From the UHGV virus genome UHGV-0115176: 20,696 nucleotides of DNA; one strand, 5' to 3'. The position numbers and the translations under genes were made by a program. The notes under the pieces were generated by a model. That model ran no database searches, had not been told where the DNA came from, and saw only the letters and a list, made by a program, of their open reading frames with translations. Below, one piece after another: positions 7,903 through 19,409 of this stretch (its first letter is position 1; every line of letters starts with the position of its first letter). This DNA comes from a virus.

Positions 7903-9783
7903 TTAATACTCCGTCACGTTTTCCTGTCGCCACGCCTCGTCATATTCCGATTTCGGCATATTGGCGATGTAGCTATATGGCGATCCTGATTCAAGTTGCA
8001 GGAACTGGTGCGATTGCTCGTCAAGGAACAACGGGACACCACCTTCCCAACCTTCGCCGTTACGTTGTTTTTCAAGCATCAAAACAGATGCAGGAGACGC
8101 CAGTAGCTGTTCGTCCTTCTCTGACATCTTTTCACCACTCTGAACTCTCTGTAACGCTCTCTCGCGAGCCTTGTTACGCCAGATGATGAAAAGGTTGTCT
8201 GTCAGGTCTGTTATCGCTCCAGAGCCTTTTACGTCCATTTTCCCGGTTGGTTTTTCTTCGCTGTCTCCTTTTCGCGAGTGAGTAACGAGAATGACGTGGG
8301 AGTTTGTTTTGTTTTTGAAGTCGCAAATCGAGTCAACAAACGCCTTCTGCCCGTTATAGTCATCGTCGCCTATGCCACATTTCATCAGGCTGTCGATGAT
8401 GAATAACTGGATCCCGTATCGGCGGCGAGCGTAGTCGAATATTTCGATCAGCCTGTCGGCTTTCGCCGTTCCGGTCAGGCCAAACACCCAAAGTCTTTCG
8501 TCATAAAATTTAAATGCAGAGTCAATTTCCAGCACTGGCGGCATCTTGCAGCACGTCGCCTGACGGGTAAGGCGCTTAAGGAGAATACCAGGCTTCAGCT
8601 CAAGTGACGCGATGCACGTCTTCACACCCTGACGCATTGCCTCAAGTGCCATATGCCCGACAACCTCCGTTTTTCCGTGACCGTTCACCCCATTGACCAG
8701 CGTCAACTCTGCCTCACGGAACTGGAATTTATCTGCCAGAGATTCCCACGGTGGATTAAACAGATACTGCTGCTTGCCGTAGAAAGCGTTGATAGTGTCC
8801 TGGTAAAACTCTCGCGCGCTGTAGAGTTCTTCAGGATCGAAGTAGGATGCCGTGCCGATGTACTGCCAGATTTCATCCTCGGTAACACCGTTCATCAGGC
8901 ATTCGTTGATGTCTTTGTACGGCAGAGTAACAAGACGGCAACGATGTTCACCGAGTCGGCTTGCGATTTCCCTTGCGGCTTCACGACCAACATCATCAAC
9001 GTCCATCGAGATGAATATTTCCTCAAACCTGTCGAGGTTGTGATACTCAAACTCAATCCACTGTTGCTTAGCGCCTTTCCCGCCACCAAACGGCACGGAT
9101 AACGCCGAGATGCCGTATTGCGCATAGCTCATACAATCAATTTCGCCTTCGCAAAGCACAACCGCCCTCACGCCAGCGTCCAGAGCCTGCCATCCGAACA
9201 GGCAAGGTTCGCAATCACCTTCTGCCATAATGACTTTCTTCCCGTCCGGGCGCTCAGTGCTGATTCGCTTGACCTGCAACAACTCACCATCGCGTTTGTA
9301 CGGAATCACCAGAGCATCCAGTTCCCGCTCTCCATTCCACACCTTGCCGCTGACAACCTCGTAGCGCTTTACGATTTCTGGCGATATGCCACGCGATTGC
9401 AGGTACTCAAGATGGGATTCTGTTCTGGTAACGTAGCGGGCGATTTTCTTACGATCAGGTCTGGAGAATTTCTTCTCACGTCTGGCATCGAAATGGTGAT
9501 CGTCATCCTTGATACCGAGAAATGCTTTCGCTTCCTGCATAGCCTGATGCAGGTTAATTCCACGACATGCCATCCACAAATCAAGCATGTCACCGCCGTC
9601 TCCCTCAGCGAAATCAGCCCATTTTTTCTTGCCGCTAAGGTTGACCTTAAGGCTGTTTCCCTTGTCACCGTTGACGTTACCGGCAACCCACTCATGCCCC
9701 TCTTTCTTGCCGTTTGGCAACAGGTGTGGAGCCACCCTGTCAACCTGCGCCCAAAGCAGGTAGCTAAGTTCACTTGGAGTCAT
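7903..9783 (-). CDS. Bifunctional DNA primase / replicative helicase (TOPRIM + P-loop DnaB/gp4-like)
   Basis: 626 aa; TOPRIM-like acidic motif VVLCEGEIDCMSYAQYGI, Walker A GVNGHGKT, Walker B-like FIIDSLMKCGIGDDD; ATG at 9781-9783 with GAGGG SD. Confidence 0.8.
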   Translation of the reverse strand: MTPSELSYLLWAQVDRVAPHLLPNGKKEGHEWVAGNVNGDKGNSLKVNLSGKKKWADFAEGDGGDMLDLWMACRGINLHQAMQEAKAFLGIKDDDHHFDARREKKFSRPDRKKIARYVTRTESHLEYLQSRGISPEIVKRYEVVSGKVWNGERELDALVIPYKRDGELLQVKRISTERPDGKKVIMAEGDCEPCLFGWQALDAGVRAVVLCEGEIDCMSYAQYGISALSVPFGGGKGAKQQWIEFEYHNLDRFEEIFISMDVDDVGREAAREIASRLGEHRCRLVTLPYKDINECLMNGVTEDEIWQYIGTASYFDPEELYSAREFYQDTINAFYGKQQYLFNPPWESLADKFQFREAELTLVNGVNGHGKTEVVGHMALEAMRQGVKTCIASLELKPGILLKRLTRQATCCKMPPVLEIDSAFKFYDERLWVFGLTGTAKADRLIEIFDYARRRYGIQLFIIDSLMKCGIGDDDYNGQKAFVDSICDFKNKTNSHVILVTHSRKGDSEEKPTGKMDVKGSGAITDLTDNLFIIWRNKARERALQRVQSGEKMSEKDEQLLASPASVLMLEKQRNGEGWEGGVPLFLDEQSHQFLQLESGSPYSYIANMPKSEYDEAWRQENVTEY

Positions 9784-9887
9784 GATTCCCTCAGATTGAG
9801 ATTTTTAAACCAGAAATCGACAAACGAAATACTTAACCAGCCGTGGTTATAACCAGCGACCAGTAACGATTTGATTTTTGATTTCAT
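9780..9887 (-). CDS. Possible small ORF (35 aa) bridging the initiator and primase-helicase genes
   Basis: Hand translation MKSKIKSLLVAGYNHGWLSISFVDFWFKNLNLRES; ATG at 9885-9887 lies 3 nt after the initiator stop, and its TGA overlaps the primase-helicase ATG. Below the ORF-track size cutoff. Confidence 0.3.
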   Translation of the reverse strand: MKSKIKSLLVAGYNHGWLSISFVDFWFKNLNLRES

Positions 9888-9890
9888 GGT

Positions 9891-10682
9891 TCACCTGTCG
9901 AAAAACACGTAGCCAGTTTTCGATACGGTGATTGCGGATGATGGTTTGGATTGTGGTTGAATAGTTTCTGGCTTCTCGTCGTTCCAGCGCTGACCGTTCA
10001 GGTAGCTCGATGGTAACAACCTGTCGAATCCGAACTGCTTACCATTCCTGCATGCGATGTCTTCTGCCAGCATCGTGGCAAACTCGCTTGCCGTACCCCT
10101 GGTAGTTTTACGCCATTCCCTGAACTGTGTTCTGAATGCTGAAGCTGCGTTTTTCTTCCCGGCTTTCCGCATGCCTGCACACCAGAATATTTCCTCGAAT
10201 GCCTTGTCGGTTTCTTCGTGACGGTCAGGAGTTTTTTCACACTCTGTTCGGACATGTTCGAACATAATGTTTTTAGGTTCATTGACTGGTTCAAAAGAGT
10301 GACTGGTTCTGGGTGAATCTCCTGCACTACCCCCTGGTGCAACTCCTGCACTACCTGGTGAATTTGCTGCACCAGATAGTGAATTATTTGCACTACCCCC
10401 TAGTGAATCTCCTGCACCATCCAGATGAAGGAGATAGATATTACTTGAGTTACCTTTTTCACCTTTCCGGGTGACTTTTTTTACCAGCCCGGACTCACAA
10501 AGGGCCGCAATATGATTCATCACAGAACGTTTGCTAATCTCGCACTGGTCAGCAATATGCTGGTAGCTGGGCCAGCACTCACCCTGATCGCTGGCATTAT
10601 CAGCCAGCTTGATCAGAACCAGTTTTCGCAATGGATTACCCACTCGAATTTTCATCGCTTTAACCATCAGCTCCATACTCAT
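9891..10682 (-). CDS. Replication initiator (HTH DNA-binding, lambda O-like role) containing an internal iteron array
   Basis: 263 aa; N-terminal winged-helix/HTH-like region (KIRVGNPLRKLVLIKLADNASDQGECWPSYQHIADQCEISKRSVMNHIAALCESGLVKKV), then a Gly/Ser/Ala low-complexity linker encoded by the direct repeats, then a C-terminal domain; the ATG overlaps the upstream stop. Confidence 0.7.
   Translation of the reverse strand: MSMELMVKAMKIRVGNPLRKLVLIKLADNASDQGECWPSYQHIADQCEISKRSVMNHIAALCESGLVKKVTRKGEKGNSSNIYLLHLDGAGDSLGGSANNSLSGAANSPGSAGVAPGGSAGDSPRTSHSFEPVNEPKNIMFEHVRTECEKTPDRHEETDKAFEEIFWCAGMRKAGKKNAASAFRTQFREWRKTTRGTASEFATMLAEDIACRNGKQFGFDRLLPSSYLNGQRWNDEKPETIQPQSKPSSAITVSKTGYVFFDR
10312..10422. 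repeat. Five imperfect 21-24 bp direct repeats (iterons), candidate replication origin inside the initiator gene
   Basis: Plus-strand units start near 10312, 10336, 10357, 10379 and 10403 with core GTGAAT(C/T)T(C/G)CTGCAC(T/C)A(C)C; flanked at 10427-10470 by a more AT-rich stretch. Confidence 0.6.
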
Positions 10683-10903
10683 GCTGCACCTCCGAGATGC
10701 TTCATGTTTTTTCCGGAGCGAAAGGCTATAAGCGGCATACTGACGCGGTAATTACGGCCCAGCGGTTCACAAACCACCTTCTGACATTCACGGTCAACCA
10801 GGCTAACACGTAGAACATGCCCTGCAGGCGTGGTGTACCACTGACCCGGACGAGGACAACGGAAAGTATGATTGGTAAACCGTTTGAAAATATTCCGGAT
10901 CAT
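10679..10903 (-). CDS. Hypothetical small protein (74 aa) with three Cys (possible zinc-ribbon-like)
   Basis: ORF-track ORF; 4-nt overlaps with both neighbours (ends 10900/10903 and 10679/10682) imply a translationally coupled operon member. Confidence 0.55.
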   Translation of the reverse strand: MIRNIFKRFTNHTFRCPRPGQWYTTPAGHVLRVSLVDRECQKVVCEPLGRNYRVSMPLIAFRSGKNMKHLGGAA

Positions 10904-12060
10904 TTGCGCCCCCTTACCTCTGAAGGGTTCAGCGACAAATTTATGAGACTGGCCAGTAGCGCCGCGTCGTTGATGCGGTCATACAGACTTACAGCCAGCG
11001 GGGATTCGGCTTTTGCCAACATGGGATAAAGCTGCTGCAGCCAGACCTTGTGGATTACCGACAGGTGGGAGTAAAGCACGCTGGCGTTATCTGCGGCATC
11101 GCTCAGCGTGGATGGCTTTGAAAGCAGTTTTTCCATCTGGTTAAAGGCATTTATGTATGCCTCTTTGAACCGGGCAGCACGTTTACCCGTGAAACCCATA
11201 GCAAGAAACGCAAAACCGTCTCGTGTGATTTGATAGCAAGGGAGCTTGCGTGTACCACCGTTCGGTTGATTTACCGAAATCGATGTCTCCGCAAAATTGC
11301 GGGCACAAAACTCTGGGGAACAATCCAGAGTGCGGATCTTTTTCAGCACATCGTCGTGACGCTTGGAGAAGAAGTTGGCAACAGCCAAAGAAGTGGTAAC
11401 GGCCTGGCCGTTGTCAATGGTGATTTCAGGTTGAGTGAGGGCTGGGATCGTAGCCATGATGGCAGCCTCCGTTGACAGTGAAAAACTTCCACCACCGGAA
11501 ACGCCAATTTCACTGGTGGTGAACTGGACGGGGTTGGCGTAACCGGCGTCAACGGAGACCGGCGCACCTTTCGGTGCCCCCGCCCAGCCCACCATAATCT
11601 GGATGTGAGCAAATGCGGACGATAAAAAAGACGCTGGCGCGTCATACATCGCCGTTGACAATTTCAGGACGCCAATCCCGGCACCCGCTTTATAAGGTGC
11701 CTGAGCAGTGTAACGTCCCGGAATTGCAGAATCAATATGCTGGTGGTCCTTCACACTCAACAAAATCACGCCTGAATTTCCACAAAGGACTAAAGCACTC
11801 ATGCGGGTAGTCTTTGCGAAGATAGATAACGCGCTGTGTTTCTGGCTCCCAACGAATAACATGGACATAAAGCCCTCTTCCGTCACGAAACCAGCGGTTA
11901 AGTTCCTGCACAACTCGCCCCCCACAGTCAGGTAAAGTTCTCTGTGGTTACTTACAGCCAGGTGATTTGGTAATCTGCATTCATGCCGTAACAACAGGTG
12001 TTCAGCGACGCTGACCACCAGCTGTTGCGACAAACGGTTATTTGCCGTTAAACTATTCAT
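10900..12060 (-). CDS. Rha-family phage regulatory protein, long ORF with a ~200-codon N-terminal extension (canonical Rha start at 11457)
   Basis: The segment from the internal ATG at 11455-11457 (GGAGG SD 8 nt upstream) reads MATIPALTQPEITIDNGQAVTTSLAVANFFSKRHDDVLKKIRTLD...ITRDGFAFLAMGFTGKRAARFKEAYINAFN, a Rha-type N-terminus. The same frame stays open for 201 further codons upstream to an ATG at 12058-12060 that overlaps the preceding gene's stop. Confidence 0.55.
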   Translation of the reverse strand: MNSLTANNRLSQQLVVSVAEHLLLRHECRLPNHLAVSNHRELYLTVGGELCRNLTAGFVTEEGFMSMLFVGSQKHSALSIFAKTTRMSALVLCGNSGVILLSVKDHQHIDSAIPGRYTAQAPYKAGAGIGVLKLSTAMYDAPASFLSSAFAHIQIMVGWAGAPKGAPVSVDAGYANPVQFTTSEIGVSGGGSFSLSTEAAIMATIPALTQPEITIDNGQAVTTSLAVANFFSKRHDDVLKKIRTLDCSPEFCARNFAETSISVNQPNGGTRKLPCYQITRDGFAFLAMGFTGKRAARFKEAYINAFNQMEKLLSKPSTLSDAADNASVLYSHLSVIHKVWLQQLYPMLAKAESPLAVSLYDRINDAALLASLINLSLNPSEVRGRK

Positions 12061-12626
12061 GCGTTAGTTTCTCCACAACCAGAAGCAATCGACGCCACGA
12101 CGCCCGGAGCTGCACACTCGCGGGCGTCACTCTTTTCTGGAGCGCAAAAGATTTTGTAGACCAGTGCTGCATGCTCCTGGAGCTTCGAAATTGACAGATA
12201 CAACTCATCATTAATTGCTGTCTGCTCGTGTGGCTCCACTACCCCATCTTCGATTGCCGAACGAATCTGCTTTGAGTAACTCCCGATCTGTTCGATGACT
12301 TCCAGCAGGCGCTGGTTTATATCGGCATTCTCTACTTCCTCAATTTCAGGAAGCGATACAAACACCCCACCAGCAGACTGTGCGACAGCATCCGCAATGT
12401 AGTGAGTGCCAGCCGCGCGCTGTAAAATCATTGCCCATCCCAGCGGGAAAATCTGATCGCCATCTGCACGAAGGCGGTTGAATAAAGCGTTCTCTGTTAC
12501 ATCCAGCCACTCAGCAGCTTCAGCGTAACCCCCCGGCAACGCCGCGATAGTTTTTCTGACAGCTTTCACGTACCACTCAGGCTGTTTTTCTACTTTCCAG
12601 TGATGCTTACCCACGGTTAGCCTCAT
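12057..12626 (-). CDS. CII/YdaT-like early regulatory protein (family assignment tentative)
   Basis: 189 aa; second gene of the rightward early operon, directly after cro, the position of cII/ydaT-type genes in lambdoid and Rac-like prophages; family from memory only. Confidence 0.6.
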   Translation of the reverse strand: MRLTVGKHHWKVEKQPEWYVKAVRKTIAALPGGYAEAAEWLDVTENALFNRLRADGDQIFPLGWAMILQRAAGTHYIADAVAQSAGGVFVSLPEIEEVENADINQRLLEVIEQIGSYSKQIRSAIEDGVVEPHEQTAINDELYLSISKLQEHAALVYKIFCAPEKSDARECAAPGVVASIASGCGETNA

Positions 12627-12657
12627 CGTTCTGTGGTTAAAAATTGAAGGTGTTCTG

Positions 12658-12858
12658 TTAATCTTTCGGATAGATATCCGGTCTTAAGTCAGATTTCGTA
12701 ATTGCACCTGACGTGCATTGCTCAAGTTTTTTAGCCAGCACAAAACTGGCTTTTTTATAACCATTGAAAACCAGCCGTAAGTAGCCTGGTGTTGAGCCAA
12801 CTTTTCCGGCCAACTCGCCCTGCTGTTCTTTGGTTAAAGAGTCCCAATACGCTTTCAT
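12658..12858 (-). CDS. Cro/YdaS-like HTH repressor
   Basis: 66 aa from the ATG at 12856-12858 (MKAYWDSLTKEQQGELAGKVGSTPGYLRLVFNGYKKASFVLAKKLEQCTSGAITKSDLRPDIYPKD), with GGAGG SD 7 nt upstream; divergent from the cI-like gene. The longer ORF-track ORF to 13161 would run through the operator region and the cI start. Confidence 0.75.
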   Translation of the reverse strand: MKAYWDSLTKEQQGELAGKVGSTPGYLRLVFNGYKKASFVLAKKLEQCTSGAITKSDLRPDIYPKD

Positions 12859-12861
12859 ACA

Positions 12862-12884
12862 ATATGTACCTCCGATATACATAT
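12862..12884. promoter_or_regulatory. Candidate operator OR-a (ATATGTACC-N5-GATATACATAT dyad)
   Basis: Inverted arms ATATGTA (12862-12868) / TACATAT (12878-12884) overlapping the pR -10 and the cro SD; a further TACAT copy at 12885-12889. Confidence 0.5.
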
Positions 12885-12913
12885 TACATGATTGAGATGA
12901 ACCTTCAAGATAC

Positions 12914-12932
12914 TTGTACCCTATCGGTACAA
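12914..12932. promoter_or_regulatory. Candidate operator OR-b (TTGTACC-N5-GGTACAA perfect dyad)
   Basis: Perfect 7-bp inverted repeat around a 5-bp spacer, overlapping the candidate pRM -35 and lying just upstream of the pR -35. Confidence 0.45.
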
Positions 12933-12948
12933 AGGTTTTAATTTCGTT

Positions 12949-13623
12949 ATGAAAACAGTCCATGACATCCGGCGGTCTAACGCCAGAAAACTGAGAGATG
13001 GTGTTGGCGGGAATTCTTCCTTTGCCACCATGATTGATCGCGAGCCAACCCAGACCAGCAGGTTTATGGGAGATGGTGCTACTAAAAATATCGGTGACAG
13101 CATGGCACGGCACATCGAAAAATGTTTCGACCTGCCTGTCGGATGGCTTGATCAAGAACACCAGACAACAAACATCACAAAAAAACCTGATGTTTCAATT
13201 ACTAACAAACAAATAACGTTAGTCCCTGTCATATCATGGGTACAGGCCGGAGCATGGAAAGAAGTTGGCTATTCTGAGGTTGATTTGAGCACAGCAGAAA
13301 CTTATCCCTGCCCTGTACCCTGTGGCGAAATGACTTATATCTTGCGGGTGATTGGTGATTCAATGATTGATGAGTACCGCCCGGGAGACATGATTTTTGT
13401 AGATCCTGAAGTCCCTGCCTGCCACGGTGACGACGTTATTGCATTGATGCACGATACGGGCGAAACCACCTTTAAGCGGTTGATAGAAGATGGAACACAG
13501 CGTTACCTCAAAGCATTAAACCCAAACTGGCCTGAACCTTACATTAAGATCAACGGTAATTGCTCTATAATTGGTACAGTAATTTTCTCAGGAAAACCAA
13601 GAAGATACAAAATAAAGGCCTAA
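12949..13623 (+). CDS. CI-like prophage repressor (N-terminal HTH, C-terminal S24 LexA-type autopeptidase)
   Basis: 224 aa; HTH-like N-terminus (ARKLRDGVGGNSSFATMIDREPTQTSRFMGDGATKNIGDSMARHIEKCF); C-terminal S24 signature with Ser in VIGDSM and Lys in TTFKRL; divergent from cro. Confidence 0.85.
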   Translation: MKTVHDIRRSNARKLRDGVGGNSSFATMIDREPTQTSRFMGDGATKNIGDSMARHIEKCFDLPVGWLDQEHQTTNITKKPDVSITNKQITLVPVISWVQAGAWKEVGYSEVDLSTAETYPCPVPCGEMTYILRVIGDSMIDEYRPGDMIFVDPEVPACHGDDVIALMHDTGETTFKRLIEDGTQRYLKALNPNWPEPYIKINGNCSIIGTVIFSGKPRRYKIKA

Positions 13624-13634
13624 TCAATATTTAT

Positions 13635-13658
13635 AACCTGCTTCGGCAGGTTTTTTTA
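13635..13658 (+). terminator. Intrinsic terminator after the repressor gene
   Basis: AACCTGC-TTCG-GCAGGTT (7-bp stem, tetraloop) followed by T7 (13651-13657), 12 nt after the cI stop. Confidence 0.75.
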
Positions 13659-13661
13659 TAC

Positions 13662-13694
13662 TTGACAATGTACCCTTGAGATACATAATGTATC
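13662..13694 (+). promoter_or_regulatory. pL-like promoter (TTGACA-N16-CATAAT) with overlapping operator dyads
   Basis: Consensus -35 TTGACA (13662-13667) and -10 CATAAT (13684-13689); dyad ATGTA (13668-13672) / TACAT (13682-13686) and perfect palindrome GATACATAATGTATC (13680-13694); the 23-mer 13666-13688 matches OR-a at 16 of 23 positions. Confidence 0.6.
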
Positions 13695-14181
13695 TAAAAG
13701 AAACATGCCACAGGCAAGATTAAACAAAATTTGGTTGTAACACGGCGTATGGCACATGCGTCGTTAGCGGTCTGGGGACGTTAAAGGGGACAATCCACTC
13801 CTTGCTCGGGCAAACAAACCAGGTAGCCGGAATGTGCAAGTCAATGATGATGCTGATAAGACGCCTAACCAGCGTGGCGATTCGGTTTGACGCCTGGGAA
13901 GAGACCAGGACGCAACGATGAGAGCATTGACGAGCAAGGCATAAGTGCTGGTTCAATTCCAGACAGTCCCATTCAGATGGGAGGGTTGGGCAGGGAAAAG
14001 GTCCGTTCGATTCGGACACCGGCAATGCTCTCAGCGTTGTGGTGAATGCGCAGGCTGATGCGCGAAAGACATTGCAGCTATTGCGGAAAAGAGCTGTTCG
14101 GCGGGGCAATCAAACGCCCGTGAGAGTCTGAAATAACCGCAAGCCGGAGATCAGCACCGGCACCACAACAGCCACTGCTTT

Positions 14182-14228
14182 GGCGGTACCAGTTTGTACA
14201 CTTGCTTCCGGCTGGTACCGCTCTTTTT
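14182..14228 (+). terminator. Strong intrinsic terminator inside the pL leader, ~140 nt before the first early-left gene
   Basis: Stem GGCGGTACCAG (14182-14192) / CTGGTACCGCT (14212-14222), 10-11 bp and GC-rich, followed by CTTTTT (14223-14228); the 19-nt loop contains TTGTACA. Confidence 0.6.
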
Positions 14229-14365
14229 ACAAAACAGAGAAGAGCATCACCGGACGACGGGCTCATAACCCAATCCATCCGGGCGGCTGTCACCGCAGGT
14301 GTTCTTCTCTGTTTTGTGGAGAAACCAACCGACCTTGCAGGGTCGGTATGATGAGGAGCAGCAAA

Positions 14366-14728
14366 ATGGCTAGCGTACGCAGTACTGATGTGCAGGTATT
14401 TATCGTAGAACTGGACGGCGGCGTATTTGAAACCAAACTCGGCGCAGTTCTCAGTGAAGTCGCTTCCGGTGTGATGAACACGAAAAACAAAGGTAAAGTC
14501 TCGGTCAATCTGGACATCGAACCGTTTGATGAGAACCGTGTGAAAATCAAACACAAACTCTCATATGTTCGCCCGACTAACCGCGGGAAAATTTCCGAAG
14601 AAGACACCACCGAAACACCGATGTATGTCAATCGCGGTGGTCGCCTGACTATTCTGCAGGAAGACCAGGGACAATTACTGACTCTTGCCGGTGAACCTGA
14701 CGGAAAACTACGCGCAGCAGGTCATTAA
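14366..14728 (+). CDS. yfdP: YfdP-like early protein (120 aa), first gene of the leftward early operon
   Basis: ATG at 14366 with GAGGAG SD 7 nt upstream (MASVRSTDVQVFIVELDGGVFETKLGAV...); the upstream in-frame portion of ORF 14180..14728 is Cys/Arg/Pro-rich and looks noncoding. Identity inferred mainly from synteny with the clearer yfdQ/yfdR/yfdS matches. Confidence 0.6.
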   Translation: MASVRSTDVQVFIVELDGGVFETKLGAVLSEVASGVMNTKNKGKVSVNLDIEPFDENRVKIKHKLSYVRPTNRGKISEEDTTETPMYVNRGGRLTILQEDQGQLLTLAGEPDGKLRAAGH

Positions 14729-14793
14729 TATCGTTCTTAATTAACTGATTATTTATCTCATCACTGAATATCTTAATATAGTGAGGACTTATT

Positions 14794-15618
14794 ATGTCTC
14801 AGAACTTAGACGCAACCGCAATTAATCAAATCCATGCCCTTATTTCTGCTCAGGGTGTTAATGAAATTATCAGTAAGATTGGTGCCGATGCTGTGGCATT
14901 GCCTGAGAATTTCCGCATTCATGATCTGGAAAAATTTAATTTAAATCGCTTCCGTTTCCGTGGTGCGCTTTCCACTGCCAGCATCGATGACTTTACCCGT
15001 TATTCTAAAGATCTTGCAGATGAAGGCACCCGCTGCTTTATCGATGCCGATAATATGCGAGCCATCAGTGTGCTTAACCTGGGTACTATTGATGAACCAG
15101 GTCACGCAGATAACACCGCCACTCTCAAACTGAAAAAGACAGCACCGTTCTCTGCCCTGCTGTCTGTTAATGGCGAGCGTAACTCCCAGAAGTCACTGGC
15201 AGAATGGATTGAAGACTGGGCCGACTATCTTGTGGGCTTTGATGCTAATGGTGACGCTATTAAGGCAACAAAAGCGGCTGCGGCAGTCCGTAAAATCACG
15301 ATTGAAGCAAACCAGACCGCTGATTTTGAAGATAATGACTTCAGCGGCAAACGCTCTTTGATGGAGTCTGTCGAAGCGAAAACCAAAGACATTATGCCAG
15401 TAGCATTTGAGTTTAAATGCGTTCCGTTTGAAGGCCTGAAAGAACGTCCGTTTAAATTACGCCTCAGCATTATCACTGGTGATCGCCCTGTACTGGTTCT
15501 GCGCATTATTCAGCTGGAAGCAGTGCAGGAAGAAATGGCTAACGAATTTCGTGATCTGCTTGTTGAAAAATTCAAAGACAGCAAAGTAGAAACCTTTATT
15601 GGTACTTTCACCGCCTGA
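14794..15618 (+). CDS. yfdQ: YfdQ-like protein (DUF2303 family)
   Basis: 274 aa, [48 protein letters not shown]...; matches my recollection of E. coli K-12 CPS-53 YfdQ; GAGG SD 7 nt before the ATG. Confidence 0.75.
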
Positions 15619-15631
15619 TTTCATTACTGCA

Positions 15632-15651
15632 AATGCCCCTGCGGGGGCATT
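15632..15651 (+). other. Intercistronic hairpin between yfdQ and yfdR (weak terminator or attenuator candidate)
   Basis: AATGCCCC-TGCG-GGGGCATT (perfect 8-bp stem, tetraloop) followed by a short U-tract (TTAT). Confidence 0.3.
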
Positions 15652-15746
15652 TATGGAAACGTAATTAACTCAATAATCGCCGGATGGTGCGGGATTCCTT
15701 TTACCCGAATTCAGCGCGGTGCAGCGCATATAAAGTGGAGAACGAA

Positions 15747-16283
15747 ATGTCATTTATTAAAACTTTTTCCGGGAAGCATTTTTATTATGACAAGATAAAT
15801 AAAGACGACATCGTGATTAACGATATCGCGGTTTCCCTTTCAAATATCTGTCGCTTTGCAGGACATCTTTCACACTTCTACAGTGTCGCCCAGCATGCGG
15901 TGCTTTGCAGCCAGCTGGTGCCGCAGGAATTTGCTTTTGAAGCGTTAATGCATGATGCAACAGAAGCGTATTGCCAGGATATTCCCGCTCCACTGAAACG
16001 CCTTCTTCCTGACTATAAACGGATGGAAGAAAAAATAGACGCCGTAATCCGTGAGAAATACGGGTTACCCCCGGTTATGAGCACGCCTGTGAAATATGCC
16101 GATCTCATCATGCTGGCAACCGAACGCCGCGATCTCGGGCTTGATGATGGCTCTTTCTGGCCAGTACTGGAAGGTATCCCGGCAACAGAAATGTTCAAAG
16201 TTATTCCACTGGCTCCGAGCCATGCCTACGGGATGTTTATGGAACGTTTTAACGAGTTATCGGAGTTACGCAAATGCGCATGA
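15747..16283 (+). CDS. yfdR: HD-domain phosphohydrolase (YfdR-type 5'-deoxynucleotidase)
   Basis: 178 aa from the ATG at 15747 (MSFIKTFSGKHFYYDKINKDDIVINDIAVSLSNICRFAGHL...EALMHDATEAYCQDIP...), with HD-type His/Asp metal-ligand motifs; GGAG SD upstream. The ORF-track start at 15684 is an upstream extension. Confidence 0.8.
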   Translation: MSFIKTFSGKHFYYDKINKDDIVINDIAVSLSNICRFAGHLSHFYSVAQHAVLCSQLVPQEFAFEALMHDATEAYCQDIPAPLKRLLPDYKRMEEKIDAVIREKYGLPPVMSTPVKYADLIMLATERRDLGLDDGSFWPVLEGIPATEMFKVIPLAPSHAYGMFMERFNELSELRKCA

Positions 16284-16636
16284 ATGTTTTCGAAATGGAA
16301 GGGTTTCTTCGCGGGAAATGTGTACCACGAGATCTGAAAGTGAATGAAACAAATGCTGAGTACCTGGTACGTAAATTCGATGCGCTTGAAGCTAAATGTG
16401 CGGCACTGGAAAACAAAATAATACCAGTGTCAGCTGAACTGCCGCCAGCAAATGAAAGTGTTCTGTTATTTGATGCTAACGGAGAAGGCTGGCTAATTGG
16501 CTGGCGTTCTCTCTGGTACACCTGGGGACAAAAAGAAACCGGAGAATGGCTGTGGACATTTCAGGTCGGGGACCTTGAAAACGTCAATATCACTCACTGG
16601 GCAGTAATGCCGAAAGCACCGAAGAATAAAAAATGA
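16274..16636 (+). CDS. yfdS: YfdS-like DUF551 protein
   Basis: 120 aa, MRMNVFEMEGFLRGKCVPRDLKVNETNAEYLVRKFDALEAK...ITHWAVMPKAPKNKK; overlaps the yfdR end by 10 nt. Confidence 0.7.
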   Translation: MRMNVFEMEGFLRGKCVPRDLKVNETNAEYLVRKFDALEAKCAALENKIIPVSAELPPANESVLLFDANGEGWLIGWRSLWYTWGQKETGEWLWTFQVGDLENVNITHWAVMPKAPKNKK

Positions 16637-16836
16637 GCGTGATAAAAACTCATACAGGAATTGTTATCACCCGAGACGGTCCGCAGGTAAAAAAACTGCA
16701 CCAGACAAAGCGGATGTGGGTCGTCGGAAAAAACGAGTTTTACCACAAAGAAACCGGACGCCGCCACTTTGCAGAAAATACTCGCCGCCGACTGCTGATC
16801 GATACCATCAAGCCTATCGAGGTGAAGCATGTTTAA
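16633..16836 (+). CDS. Hypothetical basic small protein (67 aa)
   Basis: ATG at 16633 overlaps the yfdS stop (ATGA). Confidence 0.55.
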   Translation: MSVIKTHTGIVITRDGPQVKKLHQTKRMWVVGKNEFYHKETGRRHFAENTRRRLLIDTIKPIEVKHV

Positions 16837-17068
16837 ACAGAACGAAAAATCTATCGCTCAAATTGCTGAGTATATCCCGCGTGCGTGCCGGGGTATGCAG
16901 TTGCAGGAAGCCAAAGCACGCCTGGAGAAAAAAATTGCGCTCTATATCGATGACGGCTGTGATACTGCCGTTCTTAACGCGGCGTTCGCGCCAGCTCTTA
17001 ACAGTCATACGCGAAAGTCTTTTTTTTCGTGCATCGCAGCGCAGATCCGTAAAGGAGGCAACCAGTGA
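16829..17068 (+). CDS. Hypothetical protein (79 aa)
   Basis: ATG at 16829 with GAGGTG SD; overlaps neighbours at both ends. Confidence 0.55.
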   Translation: MFKQNEKSIAQIAEYIPRACRGMQLQEAKARLEKKIALYIDDGCDTAVLNAAFAPALNSHTRKSFFSCIAAQIRKGGNQ

Positions 17069-17601
17069 GCAACATTAACTATCAGGTACTGCGTGAGGCG
17101 GCAGAACGTGCAATTCCAGCAATGGAACGCCTGTTAATGTTGCCAGCTGATGATGATTTGTTAAGTGAACAGGAACTTAAAGATTACGGTGTGGATATTG
17201 ATGCGCTCAATGCCTTCAAATTTCTGACCGGACCAGAAACCGTGCTGGCACTACTGGATGAACGGGAAAGAAACCAGCAATACATCAAACGCCGCGACCA
17301 GGAGAACGAGGATATTGCGCTTACGGTTGGGAAGCTGCGCGTTGAGCTTGAAGCAGCAAAATCAAAACTCAACGAGCAGCGCGAGTATTACGAGGGAGTT
17401 ATCTCTGATGGGTGCAAGCGTATTGCTGAACTGGAAGCGCGGGAAGTTCAATTACCGACTCGCTACGACCTTCGATATGGACACCCGATAAATGCAGATG
17501 AGCGACAAGTCATGATACCTAAAGAAAATGGCAGTTGGCTTTACCTGATTGACCTAGAACACGCATTACGCGTCGCTGACATTCGCATCAAAGGAGAGTG
17601 A
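17065..17601 (+). CDS. Ead/Ea22-like early protein (GTG start)
   Basis: 178 aa; start codon is GTG at 17065-17067 preceded by AAAGGAGG 6 nt upstream and overlapping the upstream stop (GTGA); central coiled-coil-like segment; the MSNINYQ... N-terminus resembles Ea22-type proteins of lambdoid phages as I recall them. Confidence 0.6.
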   Translation: MSNINYQVLREAAERAIPAMERLLMLPADDDLLSEQELKDYGVDIDALNAFKFLTGPETVLALLDERERNQQYIKRRDQENEDIALTVGKLRVELEAAKSKLNEQREYYEGVISDGCKRIAELEAREVQLPTRYDLRYGHPINADERQVMIPKENGSWLYLIDLEHALRVADIRIKGE

Positions 17602-17602
17602 T

Positions 17603-17866
17603 ATGGCAACTTTGACAAAAAAAGAACAAGCATGGTTGAGCGAATTACAGGACGTTCTTGATCGCTGCCCATCACCGAAAAAAATTGGTTTTTACACCAT
17701 TGGCGATAAAAGCATTTACCTGTATGACCTGCGCCGCATGGATGAAATCATGGAGGCTCTTGATAATCGTTCGTCAATGGATTGGTGTGTTGCTGTTCAT
17801 GATATGAATGCCGGATTTGATGAAAAGATTTTATTCCCCTCATCAGTTGAAAGTACAGCAGGATAA
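17603..17866 (+). CDS. Hypothetical protein (87 aa)
   Basis: ATG at 17603 with AAGGAG SD. Confidence 0.55.
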   Translation: MATLTKKEQAWLSELQDVLDRCPSPKKIGFYTIGDKSIYLYDLRRMDEIMEALDNRSSMDWCVAVHDMNAGFDEKILFPSSVESTAG

Positions 17867-17876
17867 GGACTAACAC

Positions 17877-18638
17877 ATGACCACTATTACCAAAGAGCGA
17901 CTGCTGACAATCAGGCAGTGGCGCGAAACATACGGACCTGGTAGCAACGTTGTACTGCCAGCAGAAGAAGCGGAAGAACTGGCACGAATTGCTCTGGCAT
18001 CGCTGGAAGCAGAGCCGATAGGTTTCCGTTGCAGGCGCAATGATAACCTTGGTGATTGGAGTTACGTATATCATCGAGAGCCAGATGATTTTGAGCGCAA
18101 ACATTTAGTGATAGAGGGCATTTACGCCGCCCCTCCAGCACCGGTAGTGCCTGAAGAAGCAACTCCGGAAAACGTAGAAATGCTCTCTGGCTATGTTTCA
18201 ACGTACAAATTAACCGATAGCGAGCGCGATATTGCTGCCGAAATATGGAACGCCTGCCGCGCCGCCATGCTTCAGTCCGGAAACTTTCGGGAAAACAAGA
18301 ATTCGTCAACCAATAATTTTCGGGAAATCGCGGAAACGTCAACCAACTATCCGGCAATTCCTAGTGAGGTGTTGTCCGCAATCCTGAAGGTTGCCAGGAT
18401 TCGTGCCGATTTCGATGATTTTGACGGTGACAGGCGAGGTATCGGTGATTGTCTGGATGAGGCTGAGCAAGAGCTTATCGTTACCATTAACAAATATGCC
18501 AGTCAGTTGGCAGCAGAACCTATAGCGCCTAATGACGTTCGAGAGCAGACAGCCATTCCACAAGTTCCGGTAACTCCGGATGGTTGGATAAGCTGTAGTG
18601 AGCGAATGCCGGACGACAGGCAGGAGGTGAATCAATGA
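17877..18638 (+). CDS. Hypothetical acidic protein (253 aa)
   Basis: ATG at 17877 with AAGGA SD; the C-terminal ...PDGWISCSERMPDD resembles the beginning of DUF551-type domains but the frame stops 9 codons later. Confidence 0.6.
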   Translation: MTTITKERLLTIRQWRETYGPGSNVVLPAEEAEELARIALASLEAEPIGFRCRRNDNLGDWSYVYHREPDDFERKHLVIEGIYAAPPAPVVPEEATPENVEMLSGYVSTYKLTDSERDIAAEIWNACRAAMLQSGNFRENKNSSTNNFREIAETSTNYPAIPSEVLSAILKVARIRADFDDFDGDRRGIGDCLDEAEQELIVTINKYASQLAAEPIAPNDVREQTAIPQVPVTPDGWISCSERMPDDRQEVNQ

Positions 18639-18718
18639 GCTGGCCTGATGCAATCGTAACTCTGGGGGTGGTCTTCGCAGCAGCGTTTGTTGTGTTCTCG
18701 ATTTGTCGATGGGGATAA
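18635..18718 (+). CDS. Possible small hydrophobic peptide (27 aa, single TM helix)
   Basis: Hand translation MSWPDAIVTLGVVFAAAFVVFSICRWG; ATG at 18635-18637 overlaps the upstream TGA (ATGA) and is preceded by AGGAGGTGA; below the ORF-track cutoff. Confidence 0.35.
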   Translation: MSWPDAIVTLGVVFAAAFVVFSICRWG

Positions 18719-18722
18719 CCAC

Positions 18723-18965
18723 ATGTTCGCTTTGATTCAACGCGGTCAGATATACACGGACAGAGCTGGATACCCCGTGGTGATTACTCGCATCACTGAG
18801 CACTCAGTGTTCTTTCGACGGATGGACGGACGATCCGGGCGGGTACGCATTGGTGAGTTAAACTGCCTGTTCGAACATATTGACCACCAGGAGTACCGCA
18901 AAATTCTCGCGGACACTGAGCAGGAAAAGCACCTGAAAAAATTACGAGCCATGAAAAGGAAGTAA
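18723..18965 (+). CDS. Small hypothetical protein (80 aa; DUF4222-like, tentative)
   Basis: Internal ATG at 18723 of ORF 18687..18965 (MFALIQRGQIYTDRAGYPVVITRITEHSVFFRRMDGRSGRVRIGELN...). Confidence 0.55.
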   Translation: MFALIQRGQIYTDRAGYPVVITRITEHSVFFRRMDGRSGRVRIGELNCLFEHIDHQEYRKILADTEQEKHLKKLRAMKRK

Positions 18966-18968
18966 ACA

Positions 18969-19103
18969 ATGAATAAAGCATTTGAACGATGGGTCCACCA
19001 GCGTTACGGCAATCGCTATGATCTGACGCGAGATGTTGACGGTTTCTACTGTCGTGAAGTTGTGAAGCGAATGTTTGAAGTGTGGTGCCACTGCCGTGGA
19101 TGA
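18969..19103 (+). CDS. Possible small Cys-containing ORF (44 aa)
   Basis: Hand translation MNKAFERWVHQRYGNRYDLTRDVDGFYCREVVKRMFEVWCHCRG; starts 3 nt after the upstream stop. Confidence 0.3.
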   Translation: MNKAFERWVHQRYGNRYDLTRDVDGFYCREVVKRMFEVWCHCRG

Positions 19104-19121
19104 AAGTTTTATGAGGTTGGC

Positions 19122-19376
19122 ATGCAGACAATCATCTATCAGATAACCCCCAGCAAATGGTGTACGGAGAGAGTCCTTATTGCATCAACAGGGCTAAAGC
19201 CTGGCACCATTGAGCGGGCAAGAAGAAAGTCATGGATGCAGGGAAAAGAATACCGCCATTACGCTGTAGAAGGTGATCCGGGGCACTACAGTGAATGCCT
19301 GTACAACATCGAAGAAATTATGCGATGGATCGAAAACCAGAAACAACCAGGTGCCAAAAATGCAAGTTCCGGTTAA
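19122..19376 (+). CDS. xis: Excisionase-like DNA-binding protein (Xis)
   Basis: 84 aa immediately upstream of the integrase on the same strand; W...G(K/R)EY pattern reminiscent of lambda-type Xis; GAGG SD. Confidence 0.6.
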   Translation: MQTIIYQITPSKWCTERVLIASTGLKPGTIERARRKSWMQGKEYRHYAVEGDPGHYSECLYNIEEIMRWIENQKQPGAKNASSG

Positions 19377-19409
19377 CCTGTTAATGCTCCTGGACGTCTG
19401 GGAGGTTTA

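Follow-up and report, generated by a model that had tools for sequence, protein, structure and literature searches.

Three conserved short open reading frames in the coupled early operons of a lambdoid prophage and their probable roles as small phage genes

The virus genome UHGV-0115176 was analysed over its whole stretch of 20,696 nt, which is referred to here as the window. The window is a mosaic lambdoid prophage (lambda-like) with the PR operon on the minus strand and the PL operon on the plus strand, the latter ending in xis-int. Three ORFs of less than 60 codons, which an earlier note had picked out in gaps between larger genes, were all located where it had placed them and are called ORF1, ORF2 and ORF3. 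The features of the two regions were as follows.

7903..9783, minus strand: Toprim/DnaB-like primase-helicase, 626 aa (Pfam Toprim_2, AAA_25, DnaB_C)
9780..9783, minus strand: ATGA overlap of the ORF1 stop and the primase-helicase start, read from the sequence
9780..9887, minus strand: ORF1, 35 aa, predicted helical-hairpin protein, sequence MKSKIKSLLVAGYNHGWLSISFVDFWFKNLNLRES
9788-9792, minus strand: GAGGG Shine-Dalgarno (SD) site of the primase, inside ORF1
9891..9896, minus strand: AGGTGA SD site of ORF1, read directly from the sequence
9891-9893, minus strand: TGA stop of the O-like gene, within the ORF1 SD site AGGTGA
9891..10682, minus strand: O-like replication initiator, a hybrid gene
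17877..18638, plus strand: Ea22/EaA-type gene upstream of ORF2 (Pfam DUF551, positions 1-16 of 68 only)
18623-18629, plus strand: GGAGGTG SD site of ORF2, in the 3' end of the upstream gene
18635-18638, plus strand: ATGA overlap of the stop of the upstream DUF551-remnant gene and the ORF2 start
18635..18718, plus strand: ORF2, 27 aa, putative single-helix membrane peptide, sequence MSWPDAIVTLGVVFAAAFVVFSICRWG
18723..18965, plus strand: DUF4222 gene, 80 aa (Pfam PF13973, E=8e-14), separating ORF2 from ORF3
18969..19103, plus strand: ORF3, 44 aa, predicted helix-hairpin-helix protein, sequence MNKAFERWVHQRYGNRYDLTRDVDGFYCREVVKRMFEVWCHCRG
19122-19376, plus strand: xis, mapped from the PGAP annotation of identical DNA
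19410-20696, plus strand: int, closing the PL operon, mapped like xis from PGAP-annotated identical DNA

Each ORF filled its gap, possessed its own SD and was joined to its neighbors by an ATGA overlap or a spacer of 3-4 nt, which agreed with the tight gene chains and plausible SDs described earlier. The stop of the O-like gene was separated from the ORF1 ATG by 3 nt, and the ORF2 stop from the DUF4222 gene by 4 nt; ORF3, with the SD AAGGAAG, followed the DUF4222 stop after 3 nt, and xis began 18 nt past the end of ORF3. With a gene model mapped from the PGAP annotation of near-identical E. coli prophages, 4-nt ATGA/GTGA overlaps accounted for 10 of the 35 same-strand junctions in the window, and overlaps of 8 to 71 nt for a further 5. 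The coupling by ATGA/GTGA overlaps that had been claimed was thus real, and such overlaps are a normal feature of phage operons. From this arrangement, we infer that the three ORFs are each translated from their own SD and linked to their neighbors by termination-reinitiation.

The three ORFs had been presented as unannotated, which effectively held for ORF2 but not for ORF1 and ORF3, both of which are catalogued as hypothetical phage proteins (phrog_21848 and phrog_3871, respectively). ORF1 is annotated in ES18 (gp60) and vB_EcoP-720R6 and is left out by PGAP in E. coli VR50, and ORF3 is annotated routinely under the PGAP name WP_001030157.1. No annotation of ORF2 was present in any phage or PGAP record inspected; only a small number of genome submissions listed it, sporadically, as a "hypothetical protein". 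The peptide strings of the three ORFs were not found in the text of published papers, nor did the supplements of the Ribo-seq study on small genes of EHEC Sakai contain the peptides. Searches of Pfam, NCBIfam, PADLOC and PDB gave no relatives of ORF1-ORF3 from which a function could be transferred.

Short spacers can contain open frames by chance, in which case the ORFs would be untranslated and their conservation would only reflect recent common descent of the DNA. Most related loci were indeed 95-100% identical in DNA, so that an intact ORF says little there. However, when each gap was subjected to mononucleotide shuffling 20,000 times, an ATG-to-stop ORF filling the gap equally well occurred in only 10, 33 and 138 shuffles for the three gaps, and the comparative evidence was far stronger than this test. 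Conservation in homologous prophages, the check proposed in the earlier note, was found for all three ORFs, and diverged copies held frame and length despite many synonymous or conservative changes. ORF1 was intact in 81/81 loci that were read 5' of genes closely related to the primase/helicase, and divergence amounted to 23 nucleotide differences in 105 nt with a dN/dS of 0.32 in frame, compared with 0.72 and 0.95 out of frame. ORF2 was intact, in three diverged forms, in 79/80 loci chosen via the neighboring DUF4222 gene; its 54 nucleotide variants and 33 peptide variants were all of 27 codons, and pN/pS was 0.43 in frame versus 0.65 and 1.69 out of frame, with a fairly high dN as expected of a transmembrane helix. 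For ORF3, there were 95 homologues in at least 10 enterobacterial genera, from E. coli to Pantoea; amino-acid identity fell as low as 66%, 16 columns were invariant, and comparison with a Salmonella copy gave a dN/dS of 0.13 (3.1 and 0.69 out of frame). In all three ORFs the synonymous bias of substitutions was confined to the ORF frame and missing from the others. The search pattern for ORF2 fixed codons 1, 3-6, 25 and 26 and thereby imposed part of its apparent conservation. Of 120 pattern matches in IMG/VR, 118 stopped exactly at codon 28; among 65 chance matches from GTDB genomes just 1 did so, and none of the 65 contained a hydrophobic core. Chance frames are accordingly a highly improbable explanation, and the sequence comparisons indicate that ORF1, ORF2 and ORF3 are genuine conserved small protein-coding genes.

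ORF1 matched the PHROG profile phrog_21848 (ES18 gp60 / epsilon34 gp51) with E=4.4e-26. It is a member of this family of hypothetical 35-aa proteins, being 94% identical to ES18 gp60 and equal to it in length, with the same position and stop/start overlap. The family was narrow: clustering at 50% identity left only 3 real clusters in a set of 1.8 billion representative proteins. Rather than a generic gap between early genes, as first supposed, ORF1 occupied the PR replication module, always flanked by the O-type initiator on one side and the toprim primase-helicase on the other, and inherited together with both. The order O - ORF1 - toprim and the ATGA overlap were retained even around a 60%-identical homologue, and an ATGA or TAATG overlap of ORF1 with the primase was present in all variants. 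The O-like gene contained a recombination joint at about 10275/10276: its C-terminal 128 aa (9891-~10275) traveled with ORF1 and the primase and showed 90% identity or more in 82 of 84 loci, whereas the N-terminal 135 aa never reached 90% identity in the 84 loci and were swapped. The N-terminal domain in the window was of the HTH_36/DnaD_N type and differed from that of the ES18 and epsilon34 modules, and ORF1 itself was no different in kind. In a divergent lineage, represented by 2 low-quality and apparently frameshifted contigs, the ORF1 homologue was fused in frame to the O C-terminus. The AF2 model of ORF1 (pLDDT 85) was a helix-turn-helix hairpin, and the suggestion of a membrane peptide did not hold for ORF1, because homologues place R, D and N within the hydrophobic stretch. 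ORF1 may thus be part of a helicase-recruitment half consisting of the O C-terminal domain, ORF1 and the toprim primase-helicase, most likely as a small accessory or adaptor subunit touching the O C-terminal domain and/or the primase-helicase, and the ATGA overlap would link translation of ORF1 and of the primase-helicase directly.

The same junctions could be read as mere coupling relays, in which ribosomes are passed to the primase-helicase, DUF4222 and xis starts and the peptides themselves are functionless. The junctions all consist of ATGA overlaps or spacers of 3-4 nt, the SD of the next gene is located within the 3' part of each small ORF, and ORF1 changes freely over its last 9 codons (pN 0.34 versus pS 0.16) provided that the SD and the overlap stay. 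Nevertheless, purifying selection acted at the peptide level in all three ORFs. ORF1 was kept undamaged in L079 and L083, in which an HNH homing endonuclease gene is inserted exactly 3' of it and parts it from the primase. In many phages ORF2 is followed directly by a terminator-like hairpin or by a convergent gene, leaving nothing downstream to couple, and ORF3 precedes unrelated xis families and also sits in a nin region. The relay reading is therefore considered rather improbable, and functional peptides are preferred.

With its 27 codons and ATGA overlap, ORF2 was found behind several unrelated upstream C-termini and in front of at least 40 different downstream sequences, and the GGAGG-type SD and the ATGA overlap were retained in 83/83 distinct contexts. 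It was carried by Stx phages and other lambdoid phages, by a P1-like phage and by virulent rV5-like coliphages (Vequintavirinae); since both temperate and virulent phages carry it, its use is not tied to lysogeny. ORF2 was missing beside the 933W exo-xis DUF551 gene and K-12 yfdS, which showed that the linkage of ORF2 with DUF551 is not obligatory. ORF2 behaves as a portable mini-cassette (SD, ATGA and 27 codons) that has been attached to the 3' ends of various genes of the Ea22/EaA/DUF551 type, and it would be expressed early, from PL or early operons. Alternatively, ORF2 could be the transmembrane tail of the upstream Ea22/DUF551-type protein, produced by programmed -1 ribosomal frameshifting, as it occupies the -1 frame with respect to that gene, overlaps its stop and follows a strong SD-like element like that just upstream of dnaX-type frameshift sites. 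But the last codons of the upstream gene (GCAGGAGGTGAATCAATGA) contain no X XXY YYZ slippery heptamer, and in 7 of the 83 contexts in-frame stops occur only 2 to 6 codons 5' of the ATG. The ATG, the SD and their spacing of 5-9 nt are strictly conserved behind unrelated genes, which fits initiation of ORF2, and a frameshifted tail is extremely improbable.

The single hydrophobic helix noticed in ORF2 was borne out, and was flanked by D5 and R25. Tryptophans W3 and W26 stand at the two ends, with D or E at position 5 on one side and R25 on the other, and G11, A15, L18 and S22, positions not fixed by the search pattern, form a single conserved face of the helix. No match of ORF2 was obtained in Pfam, PHROG, NCBIfam, PADLOC or PDB; the sole hit, KdpF TIGR02115, scored 14.7 bits against a cut-off of 26.85 bits and covered 12 residues. 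ORF2 appears to be essentially a bare transmembrane helix. Most likely it is inserted in the inner membrane and uses the small-residue face G11-x3-A15-x2-L18-x3-S22 to bind either a membrane protein or itself.

A membrane-damaging toxin, similar to type I toxins or holins and depolarising or permeabilising the inner membrane with no specific partner, was weighed against this role, as toxicity had been suggested in the earlier note. Type I toxins (Hok, TisB, DinQ, Ldr, Ibs) are, like ORF2, short hydrophobic peptides; TisB, DinQ, ShoB and Ibs are close to it in size and hydrophobicity, and several ORF2 copies adjoin hok/sok cassettes, some of them hokW/sokW. However, the helix of ORF2 is devoid of charged or strongly polar residues, whereas these are present in type I toxins that form pores, for instance TisB. 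ORF2 also differs from type I toxins in being ATGA-coupled within operons with no independent promoter, long 5' UTR or leader, or antisense RNA; an Rfam search of its locus found no RNA family, and no toxin match was found in PADLOC or NCBIfam. The conserved stripe of small residues suggests specific helix packing instead, and a toxin is regarded as unlikely. Specific binding would place ORF2 near KdpF, AcrZ, MgtS, PmrR and CydX, the small single-pass inner-membrane regulatory peptides of enterobacteria. ORF2 shares with them its size class, one transmembrane helix and very short tails, and its conserved small-residue face suits helix-helix packing. Because size, single helix and small-residue face match, ORF2 plausibly works by analogy like peptides of the KdpF/AcrZ class, binding a larger membrane protein. 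In sequence ORF2 is unrelated to these peptides, and it differs from them in being encoded by phages, in its ATGA coupling to Ea22/EaA/DUF551-type genes and in its portability from one phage type to another.

ORF3 matched the PHROG profile phrog_3871 with E=1.9e-32 and is a member of the BP-4795 ORF3 / WP_001030157.1 family of hypothetical 44-48-aa prophage proteins encoded upstream of xis. WP_001030157.1 is the PGAP label on identical DNA in E. coli UPEC129, where the order DUF4222 - ORF3 - xis - int is shared, and the copy in the window is the 44-aa C-terminal variant, not the 48-aa "...GLSVV" variant that is paired with another xis type. ORF3 was usually located just upstream of xis; in E. 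coli, Salmonella and Pantoea the excisionase gene directly 3' of it belonged to three unrelated families, and ORF3 was also found in a nin region away from xis. A premature stop in 4 of 80 related loci indicated that it is dispensable in prophages. Its invariant core was RYDLTRD..G.Y.RE.V.RM, with R16, Y17, D18, L19, R21, D22, G25, Y27, R29, E30, V32, R34 and M35 among the invariant residues. The AF2 model was confident (pLDDT 89) and gave a helix-hairpin-helix with no significant fold match in PDB, and the fold occurred both by itself and as one domain within larger, uncharacterised proteins of phages.

ORF3 had been described as Cys-containing, which is correct for the copy in the window (C28, C41 and C43) but does not amount to a metal site. 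With H42 and H10 in addition, a small zinc-binding (Cys/His) regulatory protein might be imagined. Among 22 homologues, however, C28 is replaced by S, F or A, C41 by R, H42 by S, E, Y, D or V, C43 by L or F, and H10 by R or K, and AF2 folds ORF3 confidently without metal. As its cysteines are not conserved, ORF3 is not a zinc finger, and zinc binding is very improbable. ORF3 is better viewed as a putative 44-residue soluble helix-hairpin-helix accessory protein of the exo-xis region.

ORF2 and ORF3 lie in a neighborhood like that of the lambda exo-xis region, in the PL operon between the recombination genes and xis. The small proteins of that region in lambda comprise Orf60a, Orf61, Orf63, Orf55 and Ea8.5 (PMC8614690, PMC10834534). 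By analogy, ORF2 and ORF3 would share with them early expression from pL and the character of small accessory proteins that may be modulatory. No homology of these proteins to ORF2 or ORF3 was found; lambda orf55 was unrelated to both ORF3 and DUF4222, and lambda had no ORF2-like frame. The 2021 survey of exo-xis proteins does not contain the word "transmembrane", and "membrane" occurs in it 3 times, never about an exo-xis peptide.

Taken as a whole, coupled small genes with the roles proposed for ORF1, ORF2 and ORF3 are probably the right explanation of the three ORFs. The locus represents ordinary phage biology plus one small overlooked gene family, that of ORF2.

The three open reading frames of fewer than 60 codons that the earlier note had placed in coupled gene chains were all read in the window sequence at the positions and lengths claimed. 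The gene layout was obtained by mapping PGAP gene models from related E. coli prophage records (UPEC129 and VR50) across to the window, and the features concerned were as follows.

PR operon, minus strand: cro-like gene, YmfL, DUF4222, Rha/antirepressor, O-like initiator, primase-helicase, nin genes, Q and lysis genes
7903-9783, minus strand: toprim/DnaB-like primase-helicase
9780-9887, minus strand: ORF1, 35 aa
9891-10682, minus strand: O-like replication initiator
LexA-family repressor, then PL operon, plus strand: yfdQ, yfdR, yfdS-like, Ea22-type genes, DUF4222, xis and int
17877-18638, plus strand: Ea22/EaA-type gene with a DUF551 remnant
18635-18718, plus strand: ORF2, 27 aa
18723-18965, plus strand: DUF4222 gene
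18969-19103, plus strand: ORF3, 44 aa

A Shine-Dalgarno (SD) sequence was present 5-9 nt 5' of the ATG of each ORF. ORF1 started 3 nt past the O stop and its own stop overlapped the ATG of the primase-helicase, the ATG of ORF2 overlapped the stop of the upstream gene and ORF2 ended 4 nt before the DUF4222 gene, and ORF3 started 3 nt past the DUF4222 gene and ended 18 nt before xis. The arrangement predicted for a coupled pair, that is an overlap or a spacer of at most 4 nt with the SD inside the upstream gene, was found for all three. In the mapped gene model, 10 of the 35 same-strand junctions were 4-nt ATGA/GTGA overlaps and 5 more overlapped by longer stretches, which bore out the tight coupling described before; such stop/start overlaps and small conserved accessory genes are normal phage operon architecture. 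When the gaps were shuffled, an equally gap-filling ORF arose 10, 33 and 138 times per 20,000 for the gaps of ORF1, ORF2 and ORF3, respectively. The conservation check that had been called for was run: ORF1 was intact in 81 of 81 loci recovered via close relatives of the primase-helicase, ORF2 was intact in 79 of 80 viral contigs picked via the neighbouring DUF4222 gene and not via ORF2, and a protein search with ORF3 returned 95 relatives of 44-49 aa. All three ORFs very probably encode proteins. Their description as unannotated held for ORF2 in the phage and PGAP records inspected, but not for ORF1 and ORF3, which belong to phage protein families that have been catalogued though not characterised. 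The finding is mostly ordinary, and its one modestly new element is the overlooked, well-conserved ORF2 family.

The window represents a lambdoid prophage of mosaic make-up that belongs to the gene pool of E. coli, Shigella and Salmonella. Among complete E. coli genomes, none held more than 55% of it in one place; the right half (10276-20696) was 99.5-100% identical to mlrA-adjacent prophages (e.g. in UPEC129), and the left part resembled an ES18/Sf101-type module which is present also in E. coli VR50. The PL-operon yfdQ, yfdR and yfdS-like genes (14794-16636, plus strand) were observed in an apparently intact prophage. In CPS-53 of K-12, YfdR binds DnaA, and excess yfdQRS or yfdQRT inhibits the initiation of chromosomal replication (PMC4776307). 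No homologue of ORF1, ORF2 or ORF3 was found in CPS-53 (yfdQRST-ypdJ-torI). On the minus strand, Rfam matches at gathering score were obtained for C4 antisense RNA (81 bits, 11512-11599) and isrK sRNA (62 bits, 11624-11700), both within the CDS (10900-11802) that the PGAP-style model calls "Rha family" and shortly downstream of a second DUF4222 gene (11732-11911). Judged by these matches, the region resembles an isrK-C4-antirepressor cassette of the P1/Gifsy type, placed in the PR operon, and the Rha start as annotated may lie too far upstream.

ORF2 had no match in Pfam, PHROGs, NCBIfam, PADLOC or PDB, and it was without annotation in PhiR5_1, BP-4795, UPEC129 (PGAP), 933W, Av-05, ArgO145, vB_EcoS-613R10, vB_Apl-pPE4 and vB_EcoM-813R1. 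By exact-sequence look-up, the window peptide was absent from a collection of 15 billion proteins, in which a few variants were present as 27-aa "hypothetical" or "prophage protein" entries. Protein clusters at 90% that mixed the small peptides with their neighbours (185-aa DUF551, 80-aa DUF4222 and pentapeptide proteins) were inspected and did not represent fusions. The minimum gene length of Prodigal is 90 nt, and ORF2 would be missing from annotations because its 84 nt, stop included, fall below this limit.

The intact copies in the 80 contigs comprised three diverged forms of identical length, and the sole exception carried a single extra G in a G-run. With a DNA-pattern scan in which only codons 1, 3-6, 25 and 26 were fixed, 120 sites were detected in IMG/VR, with 33 peptide and 54 nucleotide variants and the stop at codon 28 in 118 of them. 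Scanning of 185,579 GTDB species genomes gave 72 sites, 7 of them genuine (from E. coli, Shigella and an Escherichia sp., plus two tiny contamination-like contigs); for the other 65, a stop at codon 28 was found in one and a hydrophobic core in none. In the 19 codons outside the fixed pattern, pN/pS was 0.43 in frame versus 0.65 and 1.69 out of frame. Among the carriers, some of them found by tblastn against phages, were lambdoid phages (Stx phages and others), a P1-like Punavirus and virulent Vequintavirinae.

Several single copies were also recorded. Coliphage-type ORF2 copies were present on a 431-bp contig labelled "Xanthomonas pisi DSM 18956", whose peptide equalled that of 933W, and on a 369-bp contig labelled "Acinetobacter idrijaensis MII"; both are most likely contamination of non-enteric assemblies. 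In "Actinobacillus phage vB_Apl-pPE4" (13106-13186) the peptide was identical to that of E. coli phages and lay beside a Hok-family gene; with a Pasteurellaceae host on record, either the host assignment or the origin of the module is odd. On a GC-rich viral contig (L235, 11000-11090, minus strand), a 30-aa ORF, MNWPEAAVACTAIAAFAFIVYAWWRWGPEL, was flanked by two co-directional genes in a high-GC phage and displayed an N-terminal WPEA motif, a single transmembrane helix and a C-terminal RWG motif, as in ORF2. From these motifs, it may be a distant ORF2 relative outside enterobacteria. Exactly opposite ORF2 in the window, a 30-aa antisense ORF (18632-18724, minus strand) was seen, and its frame was open in 53 of 54 ORF2 variants. 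An open antisense frame is expected here because codon-aligned antisense stops arise only from TTA, CTA and TCA sense codons, and this frame was judged an artefact of codon usage rather than a gene.

The translational context of ORF2 was constant among differing neighbours. In all 83 distinct contexts its ATG overlapped the upstream stop (ATGA), and a GGAGG-type SD was kept in 83/83. The genes on the 5' side included DUF551 proteins (ending in PEPPQEVNQ-stop), an ArgO145 gp10-like protein (ISVEDILR-stop), a 933W coiled-coil protein and an Av-05 protein, and on the 3' side DUF4222, the hokW/sokW cassette, convergent genes and terminator-like hairpins were found. A programmed -1 frameshift, by which ORF2 would be made as a fusion to the upstream protein, is unlikely, because no slippery heptamer of the form X XXY YYZ was present in the overlap and in-frame stops lay 2-6 codons 5' of the ORF2 ATG in 7 of the 83 contexts. 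ORF2 was not found after K-12 yfdS or after the 933W exo-xis DUF551 gene, which is followed by an ASCH gene; the linkage to DUF551 is therefore not obligatory. Lambda had no ORF2-like frame. In 933W the ORF2 copy is located in the b region, close to hokW, and the idea that ORF2 always follows DUF551 genes and possibly confounds the phenotypes of 933W ea22/exo-xis deletions was dropped. In the window gene at 17877-18638 (plus strand), only positions 1-16 of 68 of DUF551 were retained, and "DGWISCSERMP" was almost directly joined to the usual C-terminal QEVNQ-stop, pointing to the loss of DUF551 domain sequence by internal deletion.

The single hydrophobic helix that had been attributed to ORF2 was recovered as a predicted uninterrupted stretch of at least 18 residues flanked by charged/aromatic anchors, and the mean Kyte-Doolittle hydropathy of residues 6-24 was about 2.1-2.5 in family members. 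W3, D/E5, R25 and W26 were invariant or near-invariant, codons 3-6, 25 and 26 being fixed by the search pattern. Outside the pattern, G11 was invariant, A15 (93%), Y21 (90%), S22 (86%), I23 (90%) and C24 (97%) were conserved, and position 18 was always L or F. On the helical wheel G11, A15, L18 and S22 fell within 260-320 degrees, and the variable positions 8, 9, 10, 12, 14, 16 and 19 fell elsewhere. ORF2 would be a bitopic inner-membrane peptide, packing against another transmembrane helix through this small-residue face; from the residue pattern, a partner-binding membrane peptide is a realistic though tentative candidate. The proposed manner of action is like that of AcrZ, MgtS and KdpF-type peptides, to which ORF2 has no homology: the KdpF model TIGR02115 reached 14.7 bits with one variant only, against a cut-off of 26.85 bits, and did not match the window copy. 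A toxin is possible but less likely, since the helix contains no polar residue, the gene comes with neither its own leader nor an antisense RNA (no Rfam match at 18600-18750), and the stand-alone mRNA of type I toxin-antitoxin systems does not agree with an overlap of the upstream stop in 83/83 contexts. ORF2 forms a new family of predicted small single-pass membrane peptides, which are a well-known kind. The fullest version of the proposal would have an unrecognised, widespread coliphage family of 27-residue inner-membrane peptides, missed by gene callers as below the minimum gene length and expressed early through coupling to genes of the Ea22/EaA/DUF551 type, bind a specific membrane protein of the host via the G11-A15-L18-S22 face and so alter host physiology, possibly contributing to exo-xis phenotypes; in its entirety this is rather unlikely.

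ORF1 matched the profile phrog_21848 (E=4.4e-26, residues 1-34 on positions 1-34 of 35). It has been annotated as gp60 "function unknown" in ES18, as hypothetical in vB_EcoP-720R6 and as gp51 in epsilon34, and was omitted from the PGAP annotation of VR50. The window, ES18, 720R6 and the contig L371 (60% identity) all had a 35-codon gene that was flanked by an O-type initiator and a toprim primase-helicase and overlapped the start of the latter. A second lineage, MKSRIKSLLIAGYNHGWLSSAFVEFWFNRLDLRSA, differed at 23 of 105 nt, with dN/dS of 0.32 in frame versus 0.72 and 0.95 out of frame. Constraint fell on the first 26 codons (pN 0.11, pS 0.52), and the final nine codons, where the primase SD is located, were free to vary. 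Only three real clusters of homologues were obtained from 1.84 billion representative proteins. In the 60%-identical cluster the genes ran Cro - CII - Phage_rep_O - ORF1 - toprim helicase, and the ATGA overlap was retained. In another, the homologue was in frame with the O C-terminus, which counts for little because it came from two low-quality contigs with apparent frameshifts. The long repeat proteins P0169 and P0170, which had only a short "GWQD.SKVDFWLT" motif in common with ORF1, were rejected as chance matches. The AF2 model was a helix(2-15)-turn-helix(20-29) hairpin (pLDDT 85), for which the BFVD fold search returned generic helical hairpins only. R, D, N and Q occurred inside the hydrophobic stretch of ORF1 homologues, and ORF1 is therefore not a membrane helix.

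The O-like gene beside ORF1 was recombinant, with the joint at about 10275/10276. Its N-terminal half, of HTH_36/DnaD_N type, matched UPEC129-type prophages, and its C-terminal half, together with ORF1 and the primase-helicase, matched ES18/VR50-type phages. In 82 of 84 loci the C-terminal 128 residues of O shared 90% or more identity with the window, a level that the N-terminal 135 residues never reached; therefore the O C-terminal domain, ORF1 and the primase-helicase travel as one unit, and the N-terminal, predicted origin-binding domain is exchangeable between loci. In 2 loci a homing endonuclease gene was inserted precisely where the ORF1 stop meets the primase start, leaving ORF1 untouched; in these IMG/VR contigs (L079 and L083) the insertion was about 490 nt, of HNH/NUMOD type, and its ATG overlapped the ORF1 stop. 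In the classical lambda model, the helicase is recruited by the O C-terminal domain. Based on synteny, co-inheritance and coupling, ORF1 could serve the helicase-recruitment module as a small adaptor or accessory subunit; such a replication role is plausible, if somewhat short of probable.

ORF3 matched the profile phrog_3871 (E=1.9e-32, residues 1-44 on positions 1-44 of 48), and it has been annotated as ORF3 in BP-4795 and by PGAP as WP_001030157.1 on identical UPEC129 DNA. Its relatives were distributed in Escherichia, Shigella, Salmonella, Klebsiella, Enterobacter, Cronobacter, Citrobacter, Pantoea and Franconibacter. Alignment of 22 relatives (66-98% identity) revealed 16 invariant columns (M1, F5, E6, R16, Y17, D18, L19, R21, D22, G25, Y27, R29, E30, V32, R34 and M35), all present in the window copy with its core RYDLTRD..G.Y.REVVKRMFEVW. 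The dN/dS against the Salmonella copy was 0.13; against the Pantoea copy dS was saturated and pN was 0.17. The earlier note had called ORF3 Cys-containing, which is true of the window copy, but C28, C41, H42, C43 and H10 all vary across the 22 homologues, and ORF3 therefore has no conserved metal site. A zinc-finger or zinc-ribbon protein was rejected, as four conserved Cys/His ligands were lacking. The AF2 model was a confident helix - hairpin - helix fold (pLDDT 89) without a match at E<=0.001 in the PDB fold search; in BFVD, similar structures came from uncharacterised phage proteins, some consisting of this fold alone and some larger, with the fold as one domain. ORF3 was located directly 5' of xis-int in E. 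coli, Salmonella and Pantoea, where the excisionase families differ (xisR-type, DUF1233 and Exc), and in the nin region of a Franconibacter-type phage. A premature stop occurred in 4 of 80 related prophage loci, and ORF3 is therefore dispensable in the lysogen. Lambda orf55 was considered as a relative of ORF3 or DUF4222 and was unrelated. ORF3 was placed among the PL "exo-xis" accessory proteins, and any specific role would be assigned with low confidence. Such proteins modulate development in lambda and Stx phages (PMC10834534, PMC8614690).

No relatives of ORF1, ORF2 or ORF3 were found in PDB sequence searches, and no PADLOC defence family matched the three peptides and two neighbours at E<=0.1. 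The peptide strings were not found in the literature texts searched, and ORF2 was not listed in the small-gene Ribo-seq supplements of EHEC Sakai. In a 2021 survey of exo-xis proteins the word "transmembrane" was absent, and three uses of "membrane" were unrelated to any exo-xis peptide.

Current understanding is not overturned by these three small genes. For annotation, all three frames deserve a CDS call, and ORF2 was missing from every phage and PGAP record inspected, including 933W, BP-4795, ArgO145, Av-05 and a P1-like phage. In ES18-type phages, ORF1 is a candidate third component of the module formed by O and the primase-helicase. ORF2 adds a predicted membrane-acting product to the accessory genes of PL, exo-xis and the b region, and the influence of accessory genes on Stx-prophage induction is under active study (PMC10834534, PMC8614690). 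If the proposal for ORF2 were true, the host physiology affected could be, for example, transport, envelope stress signalling or superinfection exclusion, and ORF2 could contribute to phenotypes assigned to exo-xis in the subset of Stx-type phages that have it immediately after an exo-xis gene.
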